Assembly (NCBI GenBank): GCA_963976765.1 | Contig: CAXBME010000006.1 | Coordinates: 295,470-315,469 of the forward strand | DNA from: an uncultured Planctomycetaceae bacterium | GTDB lineage: Bacteria; Planctomycetota; Planctomycetia; Planctomycetales; Planctomycetaceae | Direction: 5' to 3' | Length of the DNA stretch: 20,000 bases | Shown: positions 1,791 to 20,000 of the stretch, in pieces | Layout of the letters: each line of letters begins with the position of its first letter | Numbering within the stretch: position 1 is the stretch's first letter | The notes under the pieces: model-generated | The model's input: the letters and a program-made list of their open reading frames with translations, nothing else | Database searches by the model: none | Told to the model about the DNA's origin: nothing | Translations under genes and position numbers: made by a program

Positions 1791-1837
1791 CGACCCCGAC
1801 GGGACTTGAACCCGCAACCTCCGGATCGACAGTCCGG
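1791..1837 (-). pseudogene. tRNA-Asp(GTC) 3' fragment = putative att core of the integrated element
   Basis: Minus strand CCGGA-CTGTCGA-TCCGG (anticodon arm, GTC), AGGTT, GCGGG-TTCAAGT-CCCGT (T arm), CGGGGTC-G. Upstream sequence gives no D arm or 5' acceptor strand. Confidence 0.9.
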
Positions 1838-1964
1838 AAACAGACTATGAGCACCGGAGAATGGTTCCGGGCGTCAACGCTTTCAGCAAGTGCGGTGCCA
1901 TTCCCATCCGCGGGAATCTGAGCCACTCAACAGCCACTGTCCAGCATGTTCCGGGATTTCAGAA

Positions 1965-1992
1965 TTGACGACCTGTTTAGGGTCGCTAAGTT
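1965..1992 (+). promoter_or_regulatory. Putative sigma70 promoter of the early operon with operator-like dyad
   Basis: TTGACG-N16-TAAGTT, overlapped by the inverted repeat CGACC-N7-GGTCG. Confidence 0.4.
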
Positions 1993-2476
1993 CGCCGTCA
2001 CGAGAAAAGTCGACGAGCCACGAGACACAACGCTGAGACCCGGTTGCTTCCGGGAGAGTTGACCAGGCATGGTCGCTCGATCTTCAGTCGCGGTTGACCG
2101 GTTCGTCAAGCAGATGAATCGAGTCCCGCTGACGTCCTGCTGTTGAATCCATGAAGCTGTCGGTTGCAGTGATTCTGTGGCCACCGTTTTGTGAATTTCA
2201 GCCCGCTGTCGTTTGCTCGACTCACACGAATTGCGTCCCTCACTTCAGATTCCGCCAGGGATCACTCGTGAGGTATTTGCTGGCCGACATCGTGGAAGTG
2301 TGACAGGTCTTGCACTCAGGATCTGCGTGCCTTCACTGCATGGTTGCCCGCACAGTTATCACGTGATCAGGAGCGGCGACGCATGTTCGCTAATCGGATG
2401 GAGTTTCCAGGTATTCACAGGTCGACGTTGATGGGGGATTTTCCCACGGCGTTTATCTACACCAATGGAGGCTCAA

Positions 2477-3634
2477 ATGACGGCACTGAAGATCTTTTCC
2501 GGCGACGACGAAAGTCAGTCCTGGCGTCGATTGTTGAATCTGCCGCCCAATGCGTATCTGCGGCTGCGGGAATACTACGAACGATTCATGGAGCCGGCTC
2601 CGCAACGTCGCAAGTTCAGCAGGTCAACACCGCAGGCGTACCTGACGTCAATCGGTCGCTGGGAACAGTTCGGGACCTCCGAGTTGAAGCTCTGGGAGAC
2701 GGATCAGTTTGGCCGAATGATGTGGAAGCCACTGAATTCACAGACTCCGCAATCAGTGAACGATCCACCGATCGGGATTGTCATCGACGACGATCTGGTC
2801 GCATTCCAGAACGCGATGCTGGACGCCGGGTTTCCTGTGTCGACGGTCAACACCACACGCCGCCACCTGCTGCCGATCTTCAATCTGGCGGCGCCTCGCA
2901 GCGAGCGCGGTGCTGGCCGTGGAGATTTGCTGGTCCGTCCATTCTGTCCAATACTCGACGAAGAAGTTGTGCAGAAGCTGATTCCCACCGAGGAAGAAAT
3001 GACGGCCTTCTTCAAAGCGACTTCTCAGGCGAAGTGGCCGATTTCGAACGACTGGCCAGCGTCTCACTGGTGGCAGGCGTTGATTGTGCTGCTGTGCAAC
3101 TACGGGCTGGGTTGTGCGGACTGGAAGCGTCTCGAATGGGACGAACACGTCATCGAGAACTGCTCACTGCTCAAGTATGTCCGCTACAAGACTCGAAGAA
3201 AGCGGAAGCACCCGGTGCTGTTCGAGATCAATGCGACGACCAGGTGGTATCTGAATCGGATTCGATCAGAAACGATGATTCGAAATGGCAAGTCCCGGAT
3301 CTTCTGTTCGGCACAGTCGAAGACCTGCTTCAAAAACGAGTGGAATCGTCTCGTCGAACTGGCGGGAGTCTCCTGCAAGGAGAAGAAGTCAGACGGCAAA
3401 ACGTACGAAGAGTTCAGCCGCCATGCGATTCGTCGATTCTGCAATCAGTACATGAACGATCATGCTCCCGGCAAGCCGGGAGAGTGGCTGCTGAACCATG
3501 CCTTCACGACAGACAACGTTGTGAATCATCGCAGTTACAGTCGCATCTATCAGCCGCCTCAGAGCGTGACGGATGCACTGCACTCGGTCGAGCAGCTGCC
3601 GATCTTCCTTCAGACGATGCAGGAGGCGGCGTAG
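2477..3634 (+). CDS. Tyrosine recombinase/phage integrase-like protein (atypical box I)
   Basis: GGAGG RBS before ATG 2477. SAM-like core-binding segment (DDDLVAFQNAM..G..VSTVNTTRRHL..IFN), box I-like LLCNYGLGCADWKRLEW, box II HAIRR...LLNH...RSY. Confidence 0.75.
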   Translation: MTALKIFSGDDESQSWRRLLNLPPNAYLRLREYYERFMEPAPQRRKFSRSTPQAYLTSIGRWEQFGTSELKLWETDQFGRMMWKPLNSQTPQSVNDPPIGIVIDDDLVAFQNAMLDAGFPVSTVNTTRRHLLPIFNLAAPRSERGAGRGDLLVRPFCPILDEEVVQKLIPTEEEMTAFFKATSQAKWPISNDWPASHWWQALIVLLCNYGLGCADWKRLEWDEHVIENCSLLKYVRYKTRRKRKHPVLFEINATTRWYLNRIRSETMIRNGKSRIFCSAQSKTCFKNEWNRLVELAGVSCKEKKSDGKTYEEFSRHAIRRFCNQYMNDHAPGKPGEWLLNHAFTTDNVVNHRSYSRIYQPPQSVTDALHSVEQLPIFLQTMQEAA

Positions 3635-3696
3635 GCGGCTCACGTGTGAATCCAATGGAAGCGTCGGAACCGCGAGCGTCGGCCCACGCTCGCAGC

Positions 3697-3754
3697 GACA
3701 GAGCAGGTCAGGGTTCATCCTCTTCATGCCTCCGGCCTGCTCTGTCTTCGTTTT
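3697..3754 (+). terminator. Long hairpin with U-rich tail, possible terminator/attenuator
   Basis: GACAGAGCAGG (3697-3707) pairs perfectly with CCTGCTCTGTC (3736-3746), followed by TTCGTTTT. Confidence 0.45.
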
Positions 3755-3768
3755 CCCGGAGTAGTGTC

Positions 3769-3927
3769 ATGCAGAAGTTCATGCGTCACGCGAGGCTCTG
3801 GCTGTCACTGCCCGTGCATCTGATAGCGTTGATTTTCTTTGCCATCGCCACGGGAGTGATGGCCTTATCGGAACTGATCGCCGCATCCAAGCCGCCACCT
3901 TCCAGGAAGCAGGTACAGGCGGAATGA
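3769..3927 (+). CDS. Small putative membrane protein (52 aa)
   Basis: GGAG 8 nt before ATG. MQKFMRHARLWLSLPVHLIALIFFAIATGVMALSELIAA.. has one hydrophobic helix. It is the 3' end of the 527-aa ORF in the track. Confidence 0.55.
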   Translation: MQKFMRHARLWLSLPVHLIALIFFAIATGVMALSELIAASKPPPSRKQVQAE

Positions 3928-4035
3928 CCGACCACTGATCCGCCGCTTTCAGTTTTCTCAAGAAATCAATGACCTTCTGCGTGGAACGTACGCGCACAGT
4001 CAATCTTCTTTTCCAGGTATCAGGAGTGCTTTCTG

Positions 4036-4218
4036 ATGTCTTCTGCGTTTGAACTTGGCGACTGGCTGCGGATTCATGAGAGGCGAATCAGTCTGGCCAA
4101 GGACTTGATTCTGGCCAAAGAGACGGGAACGCCATCGCAATTGAGAACCAGTTTTCAGGGGTTGCTGACTCGCTGTTCGAATCGATCGGCGATGGATGTG
4201 CGCTTCAGGCGGAACTGA
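4036..4218 (+). CDS. Hypothetical protein (60 aa)
   Basis: AGGAG RBS, operon position, helical-looking sequence. Confidence 0.55.
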   Translation: MSSAFELGDWLRIHERRISLAKDLILAKETGTPSQLRTSFQGLLTRCSNRSAMDVRFRRN

Positions 4219-4341
4219 GTAGCGAGGGCGAAGTAACGGAGTGAGTCGCGACGGCTGGGACGGAGCCCGGCGAGGGCAAGCCGTCGCGACATGGAGAGAG
4301 TCTGGTTTGGGAGAGCCGGACGCAGCGAAATGGAGTGAAGC

Positions 4342-4623
4342 ATGCTGGTGGTCACTCGATCGGAAAACGAGACGATCCATATCGGAGAACTGATCGACAT
4401 CACGATCGTCGCGGTACGTGGCAACAAGGTTCGAATCGGAATCGATGCGCCAAGGCTGTTGGCGATTTTGCGAGGCGAGCATCTGACTGACGAATCGCTT
4501 CTGTCCCGCAAAAAGCTGATTCAGCAAATGACATCAGCCGTCGACGTTGAGACCGGTCGACTGGTCGAACTACTCGCCGCAAGTCCGGTCGGTCAGGCCG
4601 CCGGAATGGAGGCGACCGCATGA
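4342..4623 (+). CDS. csrA: CsrA/RsmA-family carbon storage regulator homolog with C-terminal extension
   Basis: MLVVTRSENETIHIGELIDITIVAVRGNKVRIGIDAPRLLAILRGE matches the CsrA pattern ML.LTR..GE.I.IG..I.I.V....G..VRIGI.AP....I.R.E; GGAG RBS. Confidence 0.92.
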   Translation: MLVVTRSENETIHIGELIDITIVAVRGNKVRIGIDAPRLLAILRGEHLTDESLLSRKKLIQQMTSAVDVETGRLVELLAASPVGQAAGMEATA

Positions 4624-6584
4624 TTTCCGTCGGCACCGAAATCTACATCCGTCCCGAACACGGTATAGACGGCGCTAGCGGAGCAATCTGGGGCAGACTG
4701 ACTGTCTCCGAAATGGGCGAGGTCAGTCCTGGCCAGTGGATGGTCGACTTGAGCCGTCGTTGCCAGGACGGTGTGATCCGCCGAGTCGTCAGCGGACTGC
4801 CATTTCCATTCACGGCTTCAGCAAACGGCAGACGCAGTGACGGCACCTCGAATGTTGCCGCCGCGAATGCGGAGTTGCAGCGGAATAATCCGCAGTTGAG
4901 CATTCAGCTGCAGCGGTTCCGCGAACTGGCCAAAGATCGAAAGGAACTGCGACATGCAGCTGCCGACGCTGAATCATCTGATGCACACGATCGGCAACAC
5001 TCAGCTCCAGGCGACCTGGTGGTGTCTCGAACACAAGGTCTGGCAACGAATGGATGCAGCCGAGTTCCTGTTGGGCCATCCACCGAATCGGACGATTCCG
5101 CAGGCCACGTACGACCTGTGGCTGAACGGGATTTACAAGGAGTACGTGGCGACGATCAAAGCTCAGTCGCAACTCTGGCAGCCGGGCACGTCGTCATCGT
5201 TGACCTGATGAACGTGCTGGTGGCGGCGTATCACGTCGGGCAGAAAAACCAGGTTCATGCGGTGCGGAGCTTACTGGGAACTGTGCGGCAACTGATCGAA
5301 AAGCTGAAGCCGGAAACGCTGCTGTTTGCGGCGGAAGGCGGCCATGGTTTTCGGCGAAACATCTTCCCGGAATACAAGGCGACTCGACCGGAAACCGAGC
5401 CGCTGCTGAAAGATCAGATCAAGCTGGCTCACGACGCACTGACGGCAATCGGCTGGCCGGTCCTGTCGTCAGCCGGTTACGAAGACGACGACGTACTGGC
5501 GACAGTTGCCGAGCGGTGCAAGGCGAACGGTGTGCCATGCACTGTAGTGACCACTGACAAGGACATGCTTCAGCTGCTGCCCATCTGCCGGATTTATCAC
5601 CAGCAGAAAAAGCGACTCGTCACCAGCGACGACGTTCAGAAAAAATACAACATCGGTGCCGGCCAGATGGGCGACCTGCTGTCACTGTGGGGCGACAGGA
5701 TCGACAACGTACCTGGCGTGCCTGGGATCGGGAAGGTCAAGGCGGCTGAACTACTGAACGAGTTTGAGAATCTCGACGCCATACTCGTTTCAGCCATCGC
5801 CCACGATCACGGCAAATCGTCGATGTGGGCCAAACTGAAAGAGCATCGCAAACAAGCCCTGCTCAGCCGACGGCTGGTTGACCTGCAACACAACGTTCCA
5901 CTTGCGGACGGCTGGCAGGTTGCGCGAGCCATGCAGCCGCGAGGCACATGGGTCGACTCGCTGCGAGCGATGAGTCTGGGTGCCGTCGTCAACGGTCTTA
6001 GTGACGCGTTTCAATCGGCTGGCCAGTTGCCAGCATCACAGCAAGAACCTCAAAGGAGTGACGGCCATGCCGACTTATTTTCCCGACGACCTGCAACGTC
6101 GAGCCGAACTGGCAACGAGACGCGATCAGATCAAACGCACGCTGCTGATTCTGGGCGTGTGGCAGACGTGGATGATCGATCCGAAAACGGCGTGCAGGCA
6201 TCTGGGATTGCCGGTCAAGTCGGACCAGAAACCAGAGCAGCTTCACAACCTGTTGAGCGAGTTTCAGCGGGAGGTGAGAGGCCAGATCCAACTGACACAG
6301 TCCGTCCAGCTTTCATTGGAGCTTGTGTCGATCTGGGTTTCGAACTGACCGGCGGTCCGGATCAATTCAACAACTGGACAGCCACATATGCCGGCCAGCG
6401 ATTCATCCTGCATGGGCATCCGAAGTGCCAGCAGATCACAGCCATTGACACGGGAAACAGTCACCCCCTGGCGGAGTTCAAGGAGCGAGCCAATGCGACG
6501 ACGTCCGAGACCAGACCCACATGGTCGCCCAGCGGCGAGCTGGCTGAGGATCCAGCCCAACCACTGGCACACTCAAATTGCTGA
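4620..6584 (+). CDS. Multidomain protein with Pol I-type 5'-3' exonuclease/flap endonuclease domain (~5187-5886)
   Basis: VIVDLMN, FRRNIFPEYKATR, GYEDDDVLAT, TDKDMLQL and H3TH motif GDRIDNVPGVPGIG.VKA. ATGA overlap with csrA. No polymerase domain. Confidence 0.85.
   Translation: MISVGTEIYIRPEHGIDGASGAIWGRLTVSEMGEVSPGQWMVDLSRRCQDGVIRRVVSGLPFPFTASANGRRSDGTSNVAAANAELQRNNPQLSIQLQRFRELAKDRKELRHAAADAESSDAHDRQHSAPGDLVVSRTQGLATNGCSRVPVGPSTESDDSAGHVRPVAERDLQGVRGDDQSSVATLAAGHVVIVDLMNVLVAAYHVGQKNQVHAVRSLLGTVRQLIEKLKPETLLFAAEGGHGFRRNIFPEYKATRPETEPLLKDQIKLAHDALTAIGWPVLSSAGYEDDDVLATVAERCKANGVPCTVVTTDKDMLQLLPICRIYHQQKKRLVTSDDVQKKYNIGAGQMGDLLSLWGDRIDNVPGVPGIGKVKAAELLNEFENLDAILVSAIAHDHGKSSMWAKLKEHRKQALLSRRLVDLQHNVPLADGWQVARAMQPRGTWVDSLRAMSLGAVVNGLSDAFQSAGQLPASQQEPQRSDGHADLFSRRPATSSRTGNETRSDQTHAADSGRVADVDDRSENGVQASGIAGQVGPETRAASQPVERVSAGGERPDPTDTVRPAFIGACVDLGFELTGGPDQFNNWTATYAGQRFILHGHPKCQQITAIDTGNSHPLAEFKERANATTSETRPTWSPSGELAEDPAQPLAHSNC
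4954..5208 (+). CDS. Hypothetical protein (84 aa) nested out-of-frame in the exonuclease ORF
   Basis: AAAGGA upstream of ATG. Globular-looking sequence (MQLPTLNHLMHTIG..WWCLEHKVW..) where the long frame reads as low-complexity polar sequence. Confidence 0.55.
   Translation: MQLPTLNHLMHTIGNTQLQATWWCLEHKVWQRMDAAEFLLGHPPNRTIPQATYDLWLNGIYKEYVATIKAQSQLWQPGTSSSLT
6067..6348 (+). CDS. Hypothetical protein (93 aa) nested out-of-frame in the exonuclease ORF
   Basis: Strong AAAGGAG RBS before ATG 6067. MPTYFPDDLQRRAELATRRDQIKRTLLILGVW.. looks like amphipathic helices. Confidence 0.6.
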   Translation: MPTYFPDDLQRRAELATRRDQIKRTLLILGVWQTWMIDPKTACRHLGLPVKSDQKPEQLHNLLSEFQREVRGQIQLTQSVQLSLELVSIWVSN

Positions 6585-12497: not shown

Positions 12498-12686
12498 TCA
12501 ATCGACCTTCAGTGATTTCAGGCCGACGGCGGCGGCGAGTCTGGCCAGGTCGGCCATGCGTGGCTCGCGAGTTTTATTCAACCACGTCCAGACGGTCCTC
12601 TGATCGCGTTCAATCAGCAGCGCGACATCTGAGACCGTCAGTTTTTTCTGCTCACGACGGGCGTTGATCTGGTCGACGAAATCCAT
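12498..12686 (-). CDS. XRE/Cro-C1 helix-turn-helix regulator (62 aa)
   Basis: INARREQKKLTVSDVALLIERDQRTVWTWLNKTREPRMADLARLAAAVG; GGGAG RBS. Confidence 0.88.
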   Translation of the reverse strand: MDFVDQINARREQKKLTVSDVALLIERDQRTVWTWLNKTREPRMADLARLAAAVGLKSLKVD

Positions 12687-12689
12687 CGG

Positions 12690-12917
12690 TCACGCTCCCT
12701 GTCCCTGTGGAGCGTACAGGTCATAAGCGGCAGCTGGTGACGGGATTGACTCCCCATCTTCACGCATGCCGGACAGGTGCAACTCGATCGCCTCGCGGAT
12801 CAGCGAGGCCGCTTCTTCCCGCGTTTTCCCGACGGCGACACAGCCGGGCAGGTCAGGGACGTAAGCGCCCCAGTCACTGTCTTCCGACTTTTCGATCACG
12901 ATCAGATACTGACTCAT
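12690..12917 (-). CDS. hicB: HicB-family antitoxin (short, no DNA-binding domain)
   Basis: YLIVIEK...WGAYVPDLPGCVAVGKTREEA...IREAIELHL..M.EDGESIP.P; GGGGAG RBS before ATG 12917. Confidence 0.93.
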   Translation of the reverse strand: MSQYLIVIEKSEDSDWGAYVPDLPGCVAVGKTREEAASLIREAIELHLSGMREDGESIPSPAAAYDLYAPQGQGA

Positions 12918-12938
12918 TTCTACCAACTCCCCGCCGGC

Positions 12939-13130
12939 CTACTTGAGGCCGGCCTGTTTCAGAATACTGTTGAGTGTTCCGGGCGGCAGAACACTGTTTG
13001 GCTTGCCGGCCACGGTGACACGCCCCGACTTCGTCGCGTGTTTGAACTGACGGTGACTGCCTTTCTGAGCCACCAGCATCCAACCGTCATTGTCGAGCTG
13101 TTTCAGAATGTCCCGCACTGTCGTCGCCAT
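12939..13130 (-). CDS. hicA: HicA-family mRNA interferase toxin
   Basis: L..DGW....QKGSHRQFKH..K.GRVTV........PGTLNSILKQAGL with the catalytic His in GSH; AGGAG RBS. Confidence 0.95.
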   Translation of the reverse strand: MATTVRDILKQLDNDGWMLVAQKGSHRQFKHATKSGRVTVAGKPNSVLPPGTLNSILKQAGLK

Positions 13131-18126: not shown

Positions 18127-19181
18127 TGGAGCGACTCCAGTGCGGTGACGATGCCGCGGCGAAAACTCGACTGACTGAGGAATGATTTGTCAGCCGCTCG
18201 CAGATACTGGTGAGCGGACAAGATCAACGACTCATCGGCGAGCATGTCGGCAATCTGCCGATGGTCGTCATAGTAGAGCGGGTAGTCCGCTCCGAGGTAC
18301 TCAACAACAGCCGGGTGACGATTGACGATCAGCGGCGTGTTTCTCGCAAGACATTCGATCGTCACGTTGTTCGCGGCGGCGTCCAGAACTTCCATGCACA
18401 CGACGGAGCGACTCAGTAGAAAATCGTAGCCAGATGGCTCGATGAAATTGACGTCGAGAATCCGATCGGCTGCGAACTCGCGGCGATCAGAAAACGCTTC
18501 GATGCAGAGTTGCTCGTGCTGCAGGTGATGTGTCTGACGAGGCATCAGCCGCGTGCGGTGTATGGTCGTCTCGACTTGATGAATCAGCCGCACATTGCGG
18601 AGATACCAGCCCACCTGCAACAGTCGCGGCAGTTCGATCCATTCGTCTGGACTCCATTGCATCGCGGGAATTTCGGTCGGGTGCTTCACGACTGCCGTTG
18701 GCACACTCCAGTGCTCCGCGATCCATTCGGCGAGGTAATCGCTCAGACAGATGGCCAGCCTCAGGTGAGACATCGACGCACGGAAGCCACTGTTGAGGTG
18801 CAGACGGTCGATGCGATCTTCCTGCCGAGTCCAGTCCGGTGGGTGAGGCGGGTGATGGAAGATACCCACCCACGGCTGTGTGATCGGTTCCGTGCGACGG
18901 GAGTACACCCACGTTTGCTCGACGAAATCATCGAACAGCAGCTCTGCCCGCGACGAATGCAACGGAGCCAGAGCATCCATCGCAAACGGCCAGCCGCTAC
19001 GGTGATACCCATCACCGATGATCTGCGGCTTCCGCATCAGCTTGACGATGCCCGTTGAGTGCGATCGCTCGGTGTGAGACTCGCAGTACAGGCAGTCGGT
19101 CAACGTGCAGACGCCCTTCACGCGGCAACCGAACAGTTCGGGCGTTGCATGTGGTCGACGATGTTGGCAGGTGTCGGTCAT
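18123..19181 (-). CDS. Glycosyltransferase-like protein (GT-B type) with N-terminal Cys-rich module
   Basis: HRSGW, PWVGIFHHP, ICLSDYLAEWI, VVKHPTE, LLQVGWYLRN, YDFLLSRSVV, ANNVTIECLARNTPLIVNRHPAVVEYLG (parallels the GT4 G...lEAma.G.Pvi......E motif). Confidence 0.72.
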   Translation of the reverse strand: MTDTCQHRRPHATPELFGCRVKGVCTLTDCLYCESHTERSHSTGIVKLMRKPQIIGDGYHRSGWPFAMDALAPLHSSRAELLFDDFVEQTWVYSRRTEPITQPWVGIFHHPPHPPDWTRQEDRIDRLHLNSGFRASMSHLRLAICLSDYLAEWIAEHWSVPTAVVKHPTEIPAMQWSPDEWIELPRLLQVGWYLRNVRLIHQVETTIHRTRLMPRQTHHLQHEQLCIEAFSDRREFAADRILDVNFIEPSGYDFLLSRSVVCMEVLDAAANNVTIECLARNTPLIVNRHPAVVEYLGADYPLYYDDHRQIADMLADESLILSAHQYLRAADKSFLSQSSFRRGIVTALESLQ

Positions 19182-20000
19182 AAGATGATTCGATCGCGTT
19201 GTTTTCCGGATGTCATGACGCGGTTTGCGCCTGAGTTAGCTACCGCAACAAAAACGCCATTCCCATACGTGACGGATTGCCAGTTGTTTGCTTCAGCAGC
19301 CGAGCGTGCCGTCCACGTAATACCATCAGGTGAGGTCATCACGCGGTTCGTGCCATCAAAACTGACGGCGACAAACTGACCATTTCCGTACGTGACGGTT
19401 CGCCAGTTGTTTGCTTCAGCAGCCGATCGGGCCGTCCACGTAATACCATCAGGTGAGGTCATCACACGGTTCGTGCCGGAGTTGCTAACAGCCACGAAGA
19501 GGCCATTTCCGTACGTGACGGTTCGCCAGTTGTTTGCTTCAGCAGCCGAGCGTGCCGTCCACGTAATACCATCAGGTGAGGTCATCACACGGTTCGTGCC
19601 ATCAAGACTCACAGCCACAAACAAGCTGTTGTTGTAACTCACCTCGTACCATTGATTGGCTTCCGCGGCCGAGCGGGCCGTCCACGTGGTTCCATCAGGT
19701 GAGGTCATGACGCGATTCGCGCCATCACTGCTGACAGCCACGAAGAGGCCATTTCCGTATGTGACCGAAAACCATTGATTTGCTTCAGCAGCCGAGCGTG
19801 CCGTCCACGTGGTGCCATTAGGTGAGGTCATCACACGGTTCGTGCCGGAGTTGCTGACAGCCACGAAGAGGCCATTTCCGTACGTGACATGTTGCCAGGT
19901 GTTTGCTTCAGCAGCGCTATGTCCAGTCCAGTTGATGCCGTCCATTGAGGTCATGACGCGATTCGCGCCATCACTGCTGACAGCCACGAAGAGGCCATTT
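19178..20000 (-). CDS. Beta-propeller repeat protein (BNR/Asp-box-like), 3' part; 5' end outside window
   Basis: Frame is open to the window edge (..NGLFVAV..); more than six 41-aa repeats WTARSAAEAN.W..VTYGNGLFVAVS..G.NRVMTSPDG.T. Confidence 0.9.
   Translation of the reverse strand, partial: NGLFVAVSSDGANRVMTSMDGINWTGHSAAEANTWQHVTYGNGLFVAVSNSGTNRVMTSPNGTTWTARSAAEANQWFSVTYGNGLFVAVSSDGANRVMTSPDGTTWTARSAAEANQWYEVSYNNSLFVAVSLDGTNRVMTSPDGITWTARSAAEANNWRTVTYGNGLFVAVSNSGTNRVMTSPDGITWTARSAAEANNWRTVTYGNGQFVAVSFDGTNRVMTSPDGITWTARSAAEANNWQSVTYGNGVFVAVANSGANRVMTSGKQRDRIIL
19212..20000 (-). repeat. 123-bp coding tandem repeat (~6.4 units visible)
   Basis: GGTGAGGTCAT-type anchor recurs near 19329, 19452, 19575, 19698, 19821 and (variant) 19944. 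Confidence 0.93.

Follow-up and report, generated by a model that had tools for sequence, protein, structure and literature searches.

Clustered CsrA-type sites form a candidate translational operator before csrA in a Planctomycetaceae prophage

Described Csr systems and the prophage leader

In mRNA leaders repressed by CsrA, the protein recognizes ANGGA sites in which the GGA is single-stranded, best in a hairpin loop. A CsrA dimer bridges sites 10–63 nt apart (PMC3856055), and CsrA of Escherichia coli has been reported to repress its own translation. The small RNAs CsrC and CsrB are described as carrying 14–22 sites, and some mRNA leaders titrate CsrA, including flaA, with two sites, and fimAICDHF (PMC4894983). 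TwoAYGGAY RNA (RF01731) contains AYGGA words proposed to be Csr/Rsm sites (10.64898/2026.09.22.753630). Among phages, csrA has been found in 30 of 2,517 (RsmM subfamily, PMC7366521), and the main text of that report uses 'leader' and 'autoregul' 0 times. Bci of Pseudomonas phage AUS531phi, which has a CsrA domain, influences infection as well as quorum-sensing genes (PMC7546807). Phage csrA genes and CsrA autorepression are each already known. In the literature searched, there was no described operator before a phage csrA gene and no account of Csr in planctomycete phages, and none of the literature searched described targets of Planctomycetaceae CsrAs. Phage csrA genes are common and few of their RNA targets are known; a compact four-site leader would allow a direct test both of phage CsrA binding and of ANGGA reading by planctomycete CsrAs.

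The leader described here lies in a 20,000-nt window (the whole stretch of DNA analysed), located at the end of contig C6 in a Planctomycetaceae genome of 8.57 Mb. It occupies the 123 nt between a 60-codon open reading frame (ORF) and a prophage csrA gene (positions 4219–4341, + strand) and contains seven GGA and four ANGGA. With a probability of roughly 0.55, we consider this stretch to be a cis-acting translational operator in the early polycistronic mRNA of the prophage. Its closest counterparts are the E. coli csrA leader and the hcnA leader bound by RsmE (PDB 2jpp), with which it has in common several ANGGA, one of them on the Shine-Dalgarno (SD) sequence, a spacing within bridging range, and a putative binding protein of the same fold. 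Here, in contrast, the setting is a prophage in a Planctomycetaceae host with eight CsrA paralogs, and the phage protein has atypical RNA-contact residues. RsmM and Bci are likewise encoded on temperate phages, although of hosts in a different phylum. The flaA leader of Campylobacter and the fimAICDHF leader of Salmonella illustrate how the same leader can be a CsrA target and also titrate CsrA, whereas the present one precedes csrA itself and is phage-borne.

CsrB, CsrC, RsmY, and RsmZ resemble the leader in having repeated GGA within a structured non-coding stretch, but the leader has far fewer sites, lacks transcription signals of its own, and runs into the csrA start. A scan of positions 1800–4700 returned no promoter-like site and a single terminator-like one, at 2162, with a sigma-70-tuned method that is weak for this phylum, and Rfam gave no match at the leader locus at E ≤ 5. 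The original prediction had offered two branches, an autoregulatory leader or a miniature CsrB-like sponge. The second branch was not supported, as no promoter or terminator bounds the stretch, no Rfam family matches it, and only one or two GGAs lie in stable hairpin loops. Since terminator, promoter, Rfam match, and late-gene sites are all missing, an operator acting in cis on translation is a better fit than a small RNA of the CsrB kind. As for TwoAYGGAY, its model does not match the leader, whose AYGGAG sites occur in a single-copy element instead of as two AYGGAY terminal loops on a basal stem. On the features tested, the leader resembles a CsrA-repressed leader and falls outside the CsrB/Rsm and TwoAYGGAY families. 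A ribozyme or riboswitch was also considered and rejected: Rfam gave no match, and a resemblance to hammerhead-like and HDV-like RNAs, judged by eye against consensus structures, was dropped.

Prophage setting and the phage CsrA

The prophage setting proposed at the outset was borne out. The 3' 50 nt of a tRNA-Asp gene form a putative attachment-site core at 1788–1837 (− strand) that is 100% identical to G000:C22:24649-24698, where the second copy sits in an intact tRNA-Asp, and C22:1-24,650 encodes terminase, portal, head-protease, decoration, and tape-measure proteins. Because of this shared tRNA-Asp segment and the phage structural genes on C22, the ends of contigs C6 and C22 are most likely two parts of a single prophage in tRNA-Asp, some 43 kb long not counting a gap in the sequence. 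The early block consists, in order, of integrase, small ORFs, csrA, 5'-3' exonuclease, a putative replication protein, ParB, and DNA methylase. Its first large gene is integrase-like (2465–3634, +; phrog_1 integrase, E 5e-5), and csrA is present in 12 of 20 regions around related integrases, including all four closest, which come from records labelled Planctomycetaceae or Planctomycetota. Past the integrase stop, two GC-rich stems without GGA loops (3672–3746, +) may be a processing or stability element. The 60-codon ORF whose stop bounds the leader (4036–4218, +) is preceded by an SD-like CAGGAG; it had no Pfam or PHROG match, and a protein search returned only the ORF itself (one candidate).

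Downstream of csrA, at 4620–6584 (+), lies an ORF of 654 aa for a 5'-3' exonuclease with its own ATGGAG SD (PF02739, residues 191–343; PF01367, residues 348–435). The overlap of the csrA stop with this ORF, an ATGA at 4620–4623, was seen at base level as originally described. The exonuclease domain begins only at about residue 190, and the true gene structure of 4620–5200 is uncertain because the exonuclease frame looks low in complexity there. Another frame of this ORF contains an 84-codon ORF (4954–5208, +) with an SD-like AAAGGA, called as a gene on two contigs, for which no relatives were found. Where the early and late gene blocks converge, the interval 12498–13130 (−) contains an HTH gene (PF13560) and what we take to be a HicA/HicB-like pair. 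An ORF in the late region (19178–19987, −) is built of repeats of about 39 aa and is cut by the contig end.

The csrA gene itself (4342–4623, +) encodes 93 residues, of which 47–93 form a C-terminal tail. Its assignment to the CsrA family was supported (PF02599, E 1.8e-17, 63.4 bits against a curated cut-off of 27; phrog_9500). A monomer model of residues 1–55 had a pLDDT of 89.8 and superimposed on CsrA/RsmA structures (PDB 5z38 and 1vpz) with a TM score of 0.79 and an rmsd of 0.8, and the sequence aligns in register with solved CsrA. Among the RNA-contact residues, Arg6 and Arg44 are kept, while Val4, Ser7, Leu43, and His47 are atypical; all 41 chromosomal copies sampled have Leu4, Lys, Gln, or Arg at position 7, and Val, Ile, or Leu at position 47. 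In CsrA, Arg44 weighs most in RNA binding, and Arg7 and Ile47 less (PMC3856055). RNA binding by the phage protein is plausible, perhaps weak in view of the four atypical positions, although Arg6 and Arg44 are retained. Given the same substitutions, the leader binder may instead be one of the host paralogs, of which the genome encodes eight besides the prophage copy. CsrA matches occurred in all 121 genomes of the host family searched, with 4–18 in each, and FliW had no match in the host genome.

Sites and predicted structure of the leader

The GGA positions listed in the original prediction (4211, 4238, 4258, 4262, 4293, 4310, 4318, and 4332) and the lack of TCC held at base level, with GGA 4211 located inside the upstream 60-codon ORF. 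The richness that these eight GGA were taken to indicate survived in part: no other 130 nt of the window is as dense in GGA, yet eight is no excess over shuffled sequence. Shuffles of 4211–4341 average about six GGA, and eight are reached with p 0.17 (dinucleotide) or 0.24 (mononucleotide). The count is therefore uninformative in a stretch this rich in G (58 G and 32 A in 131 nt; 44% G).

The ANGGA sites are more telling. There are four, at 4236, 4260, 4291, and 4330, the last on the ribosome-binding site as had been noted, and all read AYGGAG. Site 1 (ACGGAG, 4236–4241, +) is partly single-stranded, with a predicted unpaired probability of 0.5–0.7. Site 2 (ACGGAG, 4260–4265) lies inside the first stem, and site 3 (ATGGAG, 4291–4296, +) is single-stranded between the two stems with an unpaired probability of 0.98. 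Site 4 (ATGGAG, 4330–4335, +) is the csrA SD, 6 nt before the ATG at 4342. Successive sites are spaced by 24, 31, and 39 nt, so that an SD-overlapping ANGGA is combined with upstream sites at 10–63 nt, as in CsrA-repressed mRNA leaders. Four ANGGA are found in shuffles of the stretch of about 130 nt with p 0.03–0.05, and in dinucleotide shuffles of the non-coding 123 nt with p 0.02; for four AYGGA, a motif picked after the data had been seen, the latter value is 0.0003. With the SD region removed, three ANGGA remain against 1.0 expected (p 0.076).

Genome-wide, counted with window length and thresholds set to the observed values, four ANGGA in the 123 nt upstream were present for 14 of 3,851 SD-bearing ORFs, and four AYGGA for the prophage csrA only. 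Without the SD filter, these numbers were 21 and 4 of 14,416, two of the latter 4 being one locus. Within the prophage, only the csrA leader has such a cluster (70 nt upstream of all genes; 200 nt upstream of early genes). Collectively, these counts support a real, non-random cluster of CsrA-type sites. A prophage-wide CsrA regulon was considered as well and rejected, as such sites are not found before the late genes, none of which has more than two ANGGA in the 70 nt upstream by heuristic gene starts. A 15-codon mini-ORF (4291–4338, +) begins at site 3 and ends 3 nt short of the csrA start codon, with a possible SD buried in the 12-bp stem; it is probably due to chance.

Folding of 4219–4345 gave a z of −3.0, and 2 of 200 shuffles were as good. 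Both hairpins claimed earlier were recovered. A perfect 12-bp inverted repeat (4245–4256/4279–4290) forms a stem at 4245–4290 (+) that encloses site 2. The original prediction placed a GGG-ACGGAG-CCC hairpin inside it; the sequence is indeed there, but in the ensemble this pairing accounts for about 21%, against about 75% for GCCC/GGGC. GGA 4262 is single-stranded in both inner-stem alternatives, and the hexaloop form within the full 12-bp stem costs 3.4 kcal/mol (−27.2 versus −30.6). An alternative 6-bp hairpin (4254–4271) presents site 2 as an ACGGAG hexaloop and forms in RNA prefixes up to 4280, which suggests that it would arise first during RNA synthesis. The second hairpin (4300–4321, +) has 9 bp, three of them G-U pairs, and a GGGA loop (4309–4312); the fold energy of 4296–4325 is −12.7 kcal/mol on the + strand and −3.4 on the − strand. 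GGA 4318 is paired in this stem (unpaired probability 0.0), and the csrA SD is partly paired in the predicted fold. GGA 4262, 4293, and 4310 are predicted to be unpaired, with 4310 alone in a stable terminal loop and 4262 in the alternative one.

We infer the steps of the operator model, from transcription and binding to repression, binder identity, and exonuclease coupling, as follows. A CsrA-family dimer would bind an upstream ANGGA, be it site 2 as a G-C-closed ACGGAG hexaloop or the single-stranded site 3, or the GGGA loop. The bound dimer would then bridge to site 4 and block ribosome loading on csrA, and the output of the overlapping exonuclease ORF might be lowered as well. Such negative feedback would cap total CsrA activity, with either the phage protein or any of the eight host paralogs as the binder; phage csrA would probably limit its own synthesis or sense host CsrA.

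Leaders of other phage csrA genes and competing readings

Direct relatives of the leader were not recovered. In 61 related genomes, BLAST returned a single match of 41 nt (L011), which lies within an unrelated ORF of the chromosome, and a match on contig C49 of the same genome was rejected, being also inside an ORF. A 16-mer scan of genome contigs gave at least 120 matches, and among the 80 matches listed there was no similar structure and no csrA nearby. In viral contigs, the stem arms had 117 matches, none of the 80 viewed having csrA nearby, and the three-site pattern had 0. With the integrase as query, no locus was found in genome contigs, nor by alignment in viral contigs. Two public runs, represented by DNA contigs of one study, showed no differing letters over the leader and hence yielded no covariation.

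The comparison was thus extended to csrA genes as a class. The phage collection contained 81 csrA records, and the csrA set drew on viral scans, on regions linked to integrases, and on 46 loci presumed to be chromosomal (40 taken from the head of a list of 150 matches and six of the host's own paralogs). Clustering reduced the 212 genes to 115 viral, 10 prophage, and 41 chromosomal groups besides the window, with three loci dropped for too little upstream DNA; kinship among loci was handled by clustering alone. The statistics exclude 43 metagenome loci. One viral query had been chosen after its leader was seen, and none of its matches was significant. Of 125 phage csrA leaders, 17 had at least two GGAs in hairpin loops and 108 had fewer; the same threshold was reached by 22 of 382 phage genes other than csrA (p 0.007) and by 3 of 41 chromosomal csrA genes. 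The enrichment test was restricted to the 67 of these 125 leaders that are non-coding, by heuristic gene calls, and 80 nt or longer, with the SD region removed. Their observed-to-expected ratio of ANGGA was 1.57; the ratio was 1.05 for the leaders of 287 other phage genes and 0.96 for the 41 chromosomal csrA leaders, and GGA without a preceding A-N gave 0.99 in the phage csrA leaders. Individually, 6 of 67 phage csrA leaders reached p < 0.05, versus 7 of 287 controls (Fisher 0.021). AYGGA across the phage csrA set was not significant (p 0.08–0.15), nor did the first 78 clusters differ significantly from the means of their loci in paired tests (p 0.12 and 0.72), and control motifs shifted too (hairpin AGG, p 0.006; ANGAG, 4/67). 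Taken together, the enrichment appears specific to A-N-GGA and to phage csrA as a class, with a minority of leaders driving the excess. This suggests that about a tenth of phage csrA genes with non-coding leaders have their own operator, and it lends the autoregulatory-leader reading indirect comparative support.

The rich leaders (L139, L291, L145, L218, L230, and L151–L165) have no evident sequence in common with that of the window. The richest, L291:3750-3976, found via the integrase, and L139:2770-3000, contain 7–8 ANGGA, many of them in hairpin loops and several in hairpins with an ACGGA hexaloop; neither matches Rfam, and both are stronger operator candidates than the leader described here. 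In the family L151–L165, which belongs to phages of a different family from this prophage, 12 of 15 members (nine distinct) retain a GGA hairpin that is 100% paired, with two double-sided and three wobble changes, a pattern reached by 3 of 500 shuffles; both double-sided changes are in one sequence, and the leader overlaps the tail of an upstream ORF. The close prophage pair L289/L290 also retains its hairpin, whose loop reads AUGGA in the copy with an ordinary CsrA and AUUGA in the one whose CsrA no longer has Arg6/Arg7. In L290, a 15-nt element is repeated before two early genes.

The strongest competitor, unlikely though deserving weight, is a generic structured intercistronic spacer, in which GC-rich early-operon hairpins serve mRNA stability or processing and the GGAs arise by chance from a purine-rich strand and SD-like words. 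The unremarkable GGA count agrees with it, as do stems without GGA loops both at 3672–3746 and before many phage csrA genes (L181/L183, L242–L258, L208, and L213). Clusters of four AYGGA number 63 in the genome, and most among those listed are coding or repeat-like. In the host, a flgN-like gene (G000:C1:75173-75260, −; L558/L559; match to PF05130 below cut-off at E 5.6e-6) has four ACGGA in its leader, and this cluster is not conserved: seven congeners preserve for the most part just the ACGGA nearest the start, which indicates that AYGGA-type clusters can be transient. Against a generic spacer stand the position of the cluster before the one gene whose product would bind the motif, as rare as the genome-wide ANGGA count makes it, and an enrichment across phages that is specific to A-N-GGA and csrA.

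It is improbable that the leader is a dual-function element or a processed sponge, in which the induced early mRNA or a fragment of it would titrate host CsrA paralogs and shift host Csr control. The flaA leader sets a precedent with two sites (PMC4894983), the site densities of L139 and L291 are like those of RsmY/Z, and RNA antagonists are plausible given the eight host paralogs and the lack of a FliW match. Yet the same sigma-70-tuned scan shows no promoter-like or terminator-like site bounding the leader, Rfam has no match for it, and four or five accessible sites, compared with the 14–22 reported for CsrC/CsrB, would face eight paralogs to titrate. More doubtful still is a broader scenario in which temperate phages of planctomycetes evolved CsrA operators with several sites before their own csrA more than once and independently, the protein of this prophage has become an RNA-weak subunit that poisons host CsrA and is silenced by it via the leader, and this toggle's leader doubles as a sponge on induction. 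Were such a toggle true, early-gene output of the prophage would be tied post-transcriptionally to the Csr state of the host.

A mutual-inhibition switch is the least credible of these schemes: an RNA-weak phage CsrA would inactivate host CsrA through mixed dimers, and host CsrA would repress it via the leader. Its appeal lies in the substitutions at positions 4, 7, 43, and 47 in a kept fold, and about half of more than 500 natural CsrAs are reported to have failed to complement in a Bacillus subtilis assay (PMC13443453). Arg6 and Arg44 are nevertheless retained, other phage CsrAs with rich leaders (L139 and L218) have ordinary residues, and the joint loss of Arg6/Arg7 and the AUGGA loop in L289/L290, a single case, points to self-binding. 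Finally, the palindrome could act as a DNA operator, an 8-bp palindrome being present at both stem-arm ends (4245–4252 and 4283–4290), but the G-U pairs of the second hairpin favour RNA on the + strand. Elsewhere in the host genome, on contigs C2, C4, C10, C18, C19, and others, intergenic repeat-like long hairpins contain runs of CACGGA in which the GGAs are mostly paired.
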